64,000 nucleotides of DNA from Candidatus Hadarchaeales archaeon. GTDB taxonomy: Archaea > Hadarchaeota > Hadarchaeia > Hadarchaeales > Hadarchaeaceae. The DNA lies in contig JAVZGN010000003.1 of the NCBI GenBank assembly GCA_038872135.1, positions 31,407-95,406 of the forward strand. The letters are read 5' to 3'. The position numbers and the translations under genes were made by a program. Of the stretch, positions 1,800 to 36,438 are shown piece by piece (position 1 is the stretch's first letter; the number at the start of each line of letters is the position of its first letter). The notes below the pieces were generated by a model, which was given only the letters and a program-made list of their open reading frames with translations, ran no database searches and was not told the DNA's origin.

Positions 1800-1958
1800 T
1801 GGCGCCGGGGGGAGGACTCGAACCTCCGACCGCTCGGTTGCTGCATCCGGAATGGTCAGCCTTCAGAGATGGAGGCTCGCTCTTCATCCGCTCCCGGTTT
1901 TAACAGCCGAGCACTCTACCTACTGAGCTGTCGGGCCACCCAAAGGTGGAACCCCGGC
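1800..1958 (-). tRNA. tRNA-Asn(GTT) with two introns (8/9: 1930-1950; 37/38: 1839-1900), encoded CCA
   Basis: Removing both introns gives GCCGGGGTAGCTCAGTAGGTAGAGTGCTCGGCTGTTAACCGAGCGGTCGGAGGTTCGAGTCCTCCCCCCGGCGCCA, a complete cloverleaf; both junctions form BHB motifs. Confidence 0.93.
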
Positions 1959-1991
1959 ATCCCGGCACCAATTGTTTCTCAATCAAACTTC

Positions 1992-1997
1992 TATAAA
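1992..1997 (-). promoter_or_regulatory. Putative TATA box of tRNA-Asn
   Basis: TTTATA on the minus strand about 22-25 nt upstream of the leader at about 1970. Confidence 0.55.
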
Positions 1998-36348: not shown

Positions 36349-36438
36349 GGGCCGGTAGTTCAGCGGCATGAACGCCCGCTTCGCATGGTTGTCCGAAAAA
36401 GCGGGAGGTCGCGGGTTCAAATCCCGCCCGGTCCACCA
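36349..36438 (+). tRNA. tRNA-Ala(CGC) with 14-nt intron at 37/38 (36386-36399), encoded CCA
   Basis: G3-U70 in GGGCCGG/CCGGTCC; BHB central helix TTCG/CGAA with bulges CAT and AAA. Confidence 0.93.

Follow-up and report, generated by a model that had tools for sequence, protein, structure and literature searches.

A duplicated acceptor strand upstream of a two-intron archaeal tRNA-Asn gene as a candidate helper for splicing at position 8/9

Introduction

How could a short intron be spliced from between positions 8 and 9 of a tRNA when the splice signal has to be built from nucleotides that also belong to the acceptor stem? The question is raised by a tRNA-Asn(GTT) gene on the minus strand (1958-1800) of a 64,000-nucleotide (nt) stretch of contig JAVZGN010000003.1 (assembly GCA_038872135.1) from a Candidatus Hadarchaeales archaeon; the whole stretch is referred to below as the window. 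The gene has two inserts, one of 21 nt at U8/A9 and one of 62 nt at the canonical position 37/38. Nucleotides C3-G6 are used both by the central helix of the 8/9 splice signal and by the 7-base-pair (bp) acceptor stem, so the two structures exclude each other. The host genome belongs to the Hadarchaeota and comprises 1.08 Mb in 34 contigs; it is 91% complete, and all genome-wide searches reported here have that scope.

In current accounts, non-canonical tRNA introns are linked to splicing endonucleases of broadened specificity. Here a plain enzyme of alpha4 size is encoded, and the solution appears to lie in the RNA, where a second copy of the acceptor 5' strand stands just upstream of the gene. 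Taking sequence comparison and folding models together, we consider it likely that this is a two-intron tRNA-Asn gene with a strict splicing motif, in which the leader copy acts as decoy and tether and is removed by RNase P. If, moreover, the copy is obligatory for splicing, introns can colonise tRNA helices by recruiting a duplicated strand while the enzyme stays unchanged, and introns could spread by RNA-RNA co-evolution, a route distinct from the accepted co-evolution of enzyme and intron.

Results

A 21-nt insert between U8 and A9 has the form of a strict bulge-helix-bulge intron

Read on the minus strand, exon 1 (1951..1958) is GCCGGGGT, corresponding to tRNA positions 1-8 as judged from the sequence and its relatives. 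It is followed by the 21-nt insert (1930..1950), delimited from the sequence and from conservation in the relatives, which is made up of T, the hairpin CCACC-TTTG-GGTGG, CCCG and AC. Exon 2 (1901..1929; AGCTCAGTAGGTAGAGTGCTCGGCTGTTA) covers positions 9-37 with the D arm, the anticodon stem and GTT at 1904-1902, as placed by an Rfam alignment from model position 9. A first-pass annotation, made from the letters alone, had written the minus strand around the insert as GC-CGGG-GTT-CCACC-TTTG-GGTGG-CCCG-ACA-GC, and this string was confirmed letter for letter. Within it, exon nucleotides C3-G6 pair with the intron's CCCG to give a central helix of 4 bp, bounded by two 3-nt bulges (G7-U8-T and A-C-A9, AC being the last two nucleotides of the intron). 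An inner helix of 5 bp (CCACC/GGTGG) lies on one side and an outer helix of only 2 bp (G1-C11, C2-G10) on the other; with these flanking helices on both sides, the insert takes the strict hBHBh' form.

The remainder of the gene is exon 3 (1800..1838), positions 38-76, which supplies the 3' strand of the anticodon stem, the variable loop, the T arm, the acceptor 3' strand (CCCCGGC, 1810-1804, which pairs with the 7-nt 5' strand in exon 1), G73 and an encoded CCA. Exons 2 and 3 are separated by the canonical 37/38 intron (1839..1900), which measures 62 nt by the bulge-helix-bulge rule and contains a conserved kink-turn (K-turn) or box C/D-like element. Its splice signal pairs C32-T35 with GCAG (1844-1841) and has the bulges T36-A37|A and CA|A38. 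The rule of cutting after the second bulge nucleotide, applied at 8/9, agrees with this canonical intron and also matches the accessible text of PMC4090602. Excising 1950-1930 by that rule joins GCCGGGGT to AGCTCAG and yields a tRNA with a 7-bp acceptor stem, U8, A9, a normal D arm, GTT, a T arm, G73 and CCA. If the cut is moved by one base, position 8 becomes C, so that U8-A9 is restored solely by the cut that the bulge-helix-bulge sets. The first-pass annotation had predicted that EndA would take out exactly these 21 nt, restoring U8-A9 and leaving a 5' exon of 8 nt; the computed product is the uninterrupted sequence of the relatives, and exon 1 is indeed 1958-1951, positions 1-8.

The motif alone is no evidence for an intron, as its frequency is about that expected by chance. 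A scan of the window for 2-4-3 motifs with an inner helix of 3-5 pairs returned 138 on the plus strand and 187 on the minus strand, and five block shuffles of the plus strand gave 112-144 in the same scan. Support comes instead from the exact tRNA register and from conservation in relatives. For the latter, 66 genomes of the phylum were searched with the gene, one match was obtained in each of 57, and all 57 were parsed. Of the 57 genes, 23 are interrupted by 15-21 nt between U8 and R9 and 34 are not. Intronless relatives read GCCGGGGT-RGC without a break, and at the syntenic locus they read GCCGGGGT-AGCTCAG. The upstream flank shows homology among family members whether or not they have the insert, so the comparison concerns a single orthologous locus at which the insert is variably present. 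Both kinds of gene are found inside genera g1, g8, g9, g10 and g11 and inside family f4, and the exons are perfectly conserved throughout the phylum.

Conservation extends to each part of the splice signal. The two outer pairs and the 3-nt bulges (GU|N and AN|R) are kept in every one of the 23 intron-bearing genes. The central helix has four pairs in 22 of them, four of which include one G-U, and three pairs in the remaining gene (G024). At least two inner-helix pairs abut the bulge in 22 of 23, the exception (G067) having C.A as its first pair. Paired substitutions are seen in the inner helix (CCGC/GCGG, CTGC/GCAG, CCACC/GGTGG, CC/GG). When the 20 distinct intron-bearing sequences were aligned, standard pairs filled 96.0% of cells, versus 22-34% once partners were offset by 1-3 columns. 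Both members have changed in three of the four inner pairs (8 cells), and the covariation score was reached by none of 500 shuffles. On these comparisons, the 21-nt insert is very probably a genuine spliced intron of the EndA type at position 8/9.

A looser pattern, the first one run over the genome collection, was set aside: most of the matches listed came from bacteria (Streptomyces and relatives), had a 24-nt spacer and did not represent tRNA genes. At least three archaeal tRNA-Asn loci (L049, L064 and L090) were among the matches listed.

The gene is poorly seen by standard scanners

ARAGORN did not call a tRNA-Asn either in the window or, with intron search on, in the whole genome, where it listed 46 genes, none of them Asn. 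The Rfam tRNA model gave a local match over 1811-1929 (model positions 9-63) with 30.8 bits against a cut-off of 29, the weakest of the genome's 45 Rfam tRNA matches. The expectation of the first-pass annotation that scanners might mishandle the gene was thus borne out for ARAGORN, which missed it, and for Rfam/Infernal, which gave a partial local match. The annotation had also asked for a check on whether this is the only tRNA-Asn in the genome. That appears to be the case, since neither ARAGORN nor the Rfam model found a second one genome-wide. One TATA-like motif precedes the exons, which follow one another in order within 159 nt, and the layout is not that of a split or permuted gene; the exons are also intact and conserved, and with no second Asn gene found in the 91% complete genome the locus does not have the makings of a pseudogene. 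It is probably a functional, single-copy tRNA-Asn(GTT) gene with two introns of the EndA type, as far as can be judged from sequence. A warning follows for such lineages, where scanners under-call essential tRNAs and genomes look as if they had no tRNA-Asn.

A second copy of the acceptor strand accompanies the 8/9 intron

Upstream of exon 1, also on the minus strand, the sequence shows a TATA-like hexamer, TTTATA (1992..1997), which we presume to be part of the archaeal promoter, then the leader copy, TGGTGCCGGG (1961..1970), which the first-pass annotation did not mention, and a linker, AT (1959..1960), that joins the copy to exon 1. The leader copy duplicates acceptor nt 1-6 and has 4 further nt complementary to G73-CCA. 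It is predicted to form 10 pairs with 1809-1800, and the resulting duplex is calculated at -22.7 kcal/mol, versus -14.9 kcal/mol for the true acceptor stem.

In all 23 intron-bearing genes the acceptor 5' strand is repeated in this way ahead of G1, separated from it by linkers of 1-4 nt that vary in sequence. Among the 34 intronless genes it was found in just two, G040 (L169) and G043 (L157), both of genus g16. The 3' acceptor strand is the complement of the copy, and in many genes the complementarity extends to G73-CCA. Calculated energies for the duplex between leader and 3' end range from -17.5 to -27.7 kcal/mol in the intron-bearing genes (median -20.8), whereas the median is -6.9 kcal/mol in the intronless ones, in which the two carriers stand at -24.7 and -24.4 and the next best at -13.5. 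Across 39 distinct leaders, identity is 0.92 in the 7-nt core versus 0.38 in the 10 nt further upstream. A YTTATR motif precedes the first GCCGGGG copy by 21-28 nt in the 23 intron-bearing genes and G1 by 18-41 nt in 32 intronless genes; it was not found in the other 2.

As a falsification test of the association, metagenomes were scanned with a pattern consisting of exon 1, the intron and the D arm that placed no constraint on the leader. The scan returned 26 contigs, 21 of them with sequence combinations absent from the genomes, and the leader copy was present in 26 of 26. Because both intron states occur within five genera and within family f4, the association of copy and intron does not reduce to one inherited event.

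Some further features of the leaders were observed. The two carriers that lack the 8/9 intron, G040 and G043, also have a shorter canonical intron (43 nt), and they may be intermediates of intron loss or gain. A palindromic motif, GGGATATTATCC, is conserved some 5-8 nt before G1 in many relatives that lack the 8/9 intron, among them leaders L166, L172-L174, L176, L177, L179 and others. A second bulge-helix-bulge-like configuration in the window (1940-1971, minus strand, starting at 1971) takes in the leader copy, exon 1 and one half of the hairpin in the intron. It was judged to be due to chance because it needs G-U pairs and a window-specific hairpin.

The splicing endonuclease resembles the strict-motif type

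A genome search identified one EndA gene of 178 amino acids (aa) with both expected domains, PF02778 and PF01974, and no second EndA-like gene, this being the sole PF01974 match at E up to 1 in the 91% complete genome. Among solved structures, it is best matched by the enzyme of Methanopyrus kandleri and the alpha4 enzyme of M. jannaschii. With the latter (1a79) it is collinear over residues 15-177 versus 10-170, and the alignment is gapless over 119-177. Two inserts known from broad-specificity enzymes, the 9-aa insert of the crenarchaeal alpha (3p1z_B) and the 5-aa insert of ARMAN-2 (4fz2), are both absent from the EndA alignment. By sequence, EndA thus resembles the strict-motif alpha4 (homotetrameric) type. 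The genome also encodes the RtcB ligase (595.7 bits) and RNase P RNA (162 bits).

Folding models favor a role for the leader copy in the precursor

Secondary-structure models were computed with ViennaRNA. For the window's precursor with its leader, the lowest-energy fold (-81.8 kcal/mol) combines the 10 pairs between leader and 3' end with the central and inner helices of the 8/9 signal. For precursors starting at G1 or at -2 (-70.5 and -70.3 kcal/mol), the acceptor stem is formed at the expense of the central helix. The same analysis over the 23 intron-bearing genes showed the leader holding the 3' strand with a probability >0.5 in 23 of 23. The central helix exceeded 0.5 in nine genes with the leader and in none without it, and in all 23 leaderless models the acceptor stem was near 1 and the central helix about 0. 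When the window's leader was trimmed to the copy, the central helix had a probability of 0.79 before splicing and the true acceptor stem one of 0.96 after in-silico splicing; in this model the arrangement is a clean switch for the window's gene.

The models suggest the following course of events. The leader copy would pair with the 3' acceptor strand, and with G73-CCA where the matching nucleotides are transcribed, and the true 5' strand (nt 3-6) would thereby be free to build the splice signal for an alpha4 EndA like that of M. jannaschii. After cleavage, the copy may tether the 8-nt 5' exon to the body of the tRNA until ligation by RtcB. With the intron gone, the true strand would regain the 3' strand and RNase P would trim the leader. 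Comparison and folding models together lean towards the leader copy being a cis-acting decoy and tether that serves the 8/9 intron, and this reading accounts for the joint gain and loss of copy and intron. The stronger proposal, that the copy is an obligatory cis RNA helper that parks the 3' strand for a strict alpha4 EndA, tethers the exon and is discarded by RNase P, is one towards which the models tip only slightly. If confirmed, the reading would provide a simple testable rule for intron placement in the acceptor/D junction.

Several results weigh against a decoy and tether. Even with the leader, the central helix exceeds 0.5 in only nine of the 23 models, and in five of the low cases the structure with an enforced central helix lies 2.2-3.6 kcal/mol above the optimum. 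When the 5' segment was folded alone as a proxy for co-transcriptional folding, the central helix was favored in only one of 23 genes, the competing pairings being those of the leader copy with exon 1 via CCGG or of the copy with the intron. After in-silico splicing, the leader was still on the 3' strand (median probability 0.99, 22 genes), and with the leader trimmed to the copy the true stem won in only 6 of 20 cases. Since the leader keeps the 3' strand in these post-splicing models, its release needs something outside the models. The occurrence of the copy without the 8/9 intron in G040 and G043 means that a copy can exist without the proposed role. As the copy starts 21-28 nt past the TATA-like hexamer, its 5' part may be incompletely transcribed. 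The 3' acceptor strand is invariant, so that the helix between leader and 3' end displays compatibility and cannot covary, and gene conversion from the adjacent exon could also maintain the similarity of the copy. Finally, the related genomes are non-independent samples.

Discussion

Alternative explanations for the leader copy and the insert

Of the other ways to account for these observations, the one that survives best is that the intron is real and the leader copy passive. On this account exon 1 was duplicated in tandem by slippage on a G+C-rich 8-mer, the copies are kept alike by gene conversion, and splicing proceeds unaided. A duplicated GCCGGGGT unit predicts the linkers that are seen, which are 1-4 nt long and mostly end in T. 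The duplicate is an exact 8-nt one in G019, two genomes have the copy and no intron, and the first copy stands at about the same distance from the TATA-like motif as exon 1 does in intronless genes, which fits a local duplication. Slippage on such a repeat should delete it readily, however, and the copy has been lost in none of 23 genomes and none of 26 metagenome contigs with the intron, even though the presence of the intron flips within five genera. Variants in the copy, from genomes and metagenomes alike, still hold the duplex at or below -16.8 kcal/mol. The leaderless models, which lock exon 1 into the acceptor stem in 23 of 23 cases, and an EndA that looks like a strict-motif alpha4 enzyme also speak against unaided splicing. 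We regard a passive copy as unlikely, though it is the most serious competitor to the decoy and tether.

A copy that acts in DNA or otherwise outside the RNA is considerably less probable. It might be an initiator or an initially transcribed promoter element, with transcription starting inside or after it. The copy does lie 21-28 nt past the TATA-like hexamer, near the usual archaeal start; the usual spacing from TATA to start is about the distance at which the leader copy begins. But G1 of the intronless genes, which is necessarily transcribed, sits 18-41 nt from this motif, and by that geometry the transcript should take in the leader copy as well. Nor would a promoter element have any reason to track the 8/9 intron (23 of 23 genes versus 2 of 34) or to remain complementary to the 3' end.

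Retention of the 21-nt insert, whether in a decaying pseudogene or in a mature tRNA with an extra hairpin between acceptor and D stems, would explain the poor scores from standard scanners but is very improbable. The gene is the sole tRNA-Asn candidate, and conservation of its exons is perfect in the phylum. The CCCG complement, the fixed 3-nt bulges and the leader copy are all conserved and yet would be needless for a retained hairpin, and the covariation of the inner helix indicates selection on structure.

Least credible is that the leader copy is the real or an alternative 5' exon, with a larger intron running from the copy to A9 and the CGGG of the copy as central helix strand: the copy does have the same CGGG, the AT that follows it in the window would also yield xxxxxxAU-A9, and the two copies are identical in G019, but in most genes A or G follows the copy and would give A8 or G8, the window's copy would set A7 opposite C66, and the conserved, covarying inner helix adjoins the bulge after exon 1 and not that after the copy.

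Relation to known systems

A decoy and tether of the kind proposed for the leader copy has partial parallels. Precursors of archaeal rRNA have processing stems with bulge-helix-bulge motifs, and in both cases long-range pairing of flanks creates or protects a site for EndA. The rRNA flanks themselves form the motif, whereas here the flank would just sequester a competitor strand. The split tRNAs of Nanoarchaeum equitans and Caldivirga, as described in the accessible parts of PMC4090602 and PMC3218864, are similar in that an outside complementary sequence holds the pieces together for bulge-helix-bulge formation and ligation. Split tRNAs pair two transcripts through leader and trailer, whereas the present gene gives one transcript in which a duplicate of the acceptor strand would pair with the transcript's own 3' end; moreover, the helper of split tRNAs extends the mature fold and the one proposed here competes with it.

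The introns of Thermoproteales and other Crenarchaeota, including those at 3/4, are closer in kind. According to the available text of PMC4090602, they too are short, spliced by protein and located outside 37/38, have a bulge-helix-bulge made in part of exon nucleotides, and are often accompanied by a canonical intron in the same gene. The hadarchaeal case differs from them in that the host has a single EndA of alpha4 size and not an (alpha-beta)2 enzyme, and in the conserved leader copy of the acceptor strand that accompanies the 8/9 intron. The same text lists non-canonical sites at 3/4, 20/21, 22/23, 25/26, 29/30, 30/31, 45/46, 53/54, 56/57, 59/60, 'etc.'; in line with the first-pass annotation, 8/9 is not among the sites that this text names. 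No description of an intron at 8/9 was found in the literature, although the '/' is not searchable as a symbol and an earlier listing is possible; the phrase 'positions 8 and 9' led only to papers about modification or structure. The literature searches likewise turned up no account of an acceptor-strand duplicate in a leader that assists an intron.

The lineage has been examined before. Kaneta et al. (2018; PMC5829648) predicted the tRNAs of one Hadesarchaea genome and, in the text accessible, report an alpha4 EndA together with increased disruption of tRNA genes. Lineage and enzyme class are thus the same as here, and since that paper ties the lineage to multi-intron tRNA genes, such tRNAs are not new in it. 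The first-pass annotation had set multi-intron tRNAs apart from a 'euryarchaeal-type genome', a description that stands only in part: the host is a member of the Hadarchaeota, for which multi-intron tRNAs are already in print. The accessible text of PMC5829648 gives neither intron positions nor a leader element, though its tRNA tables may already list 8/9. That study reports an 'L3' insert for its EndA, and none is visible in the present EndA when its sequence is aligned with that of M. jannaschii. The 8/9 intron is an element of known kind at what looks like a new site, and the lineage had been recognised as rich in introns before; what looks new is the leader copy. A search of the window's genome for other tRNAs with a duplicated acceptor strand gave seven raw matches, of which one, tRNA-Asn itself, was real.

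Intron content of tRNA-Asn across the phylum

The phylum provides a natural series of intron gain and loss at one orthologous locus, with genes that have neither copy nor 8/9 intron, genes with the copy only, and genes with both, and with one to four introns per gene. The tRNA-Asn gene of L175 (G024) has four inserts (8/9, D arm, 37/38 and 59/60), and eight other relatives have three; up to three introns are given for archaeal tRNA genes in the accessible text of PMC8450103. Inserts in the D arm occur in 18 of 57 genes and belong to two unrelated sequence types, and inserts at 59/60 occur in nine of 57.

The canonical 37/38 intron is present in 57 of 57 relatives, with a length of 43-65 nt as parsed (including A38). 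Throughout the phylum its terminal stem covaries, and a C-box-like GATGAAGA occurs together with a D-like YGAC, which is CTGA in the window; the whole resembles a K-turn. Its most conserved stretch, ATGAAGARCGARCCTCMA, is complementary over 8-9 nt to the T arm of the tRNA itself (GAGGTTCG). Rfam searches with the intron gave only weak matches to sR41 and sR47 (E values of 1.2 and 3.6), and for a guide of box C/D-like type no better Watson-Crick target was found in the genome than the T arm of the tRNA itself. A replacement of the enzyme aTrm56 by an intron-borne guide, as in Pyrobaculum, was considered; it is unlikely because aTrm56 is present in the genome.

Other interrupted tRNA genes in the genome

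Additional tRNA genes in the genome appear to be interrupted. By eye, tRNA-Lys(CTT) (G000:C1:83139-83232, outside the window) has a 19-nt insert that fits position 30/31, and tRNA-Val(TAC) (G000:C11:14334-14425, also outside) is interrupted by 19 nt between D arm and anticodon stem. ARAGORN called no tRNA for Pro(TGG), Pro(CGG), Arg(TCT) or Ile with a CAT anticodon anywhere in the genome. They may fall in the 9% that the assembly lacks, or they may, like tRNA-Asn, be interrupted by several introns and escape the scanner. Within the window, tRNA-Arg(TCG) (36349-36438, plus strand) is a second interrupted tRNA gene; it measures 87-90 nt and has an insert close to the anticodon loop, and ARAGORN with intron search miscalls it as Phe(aaa).

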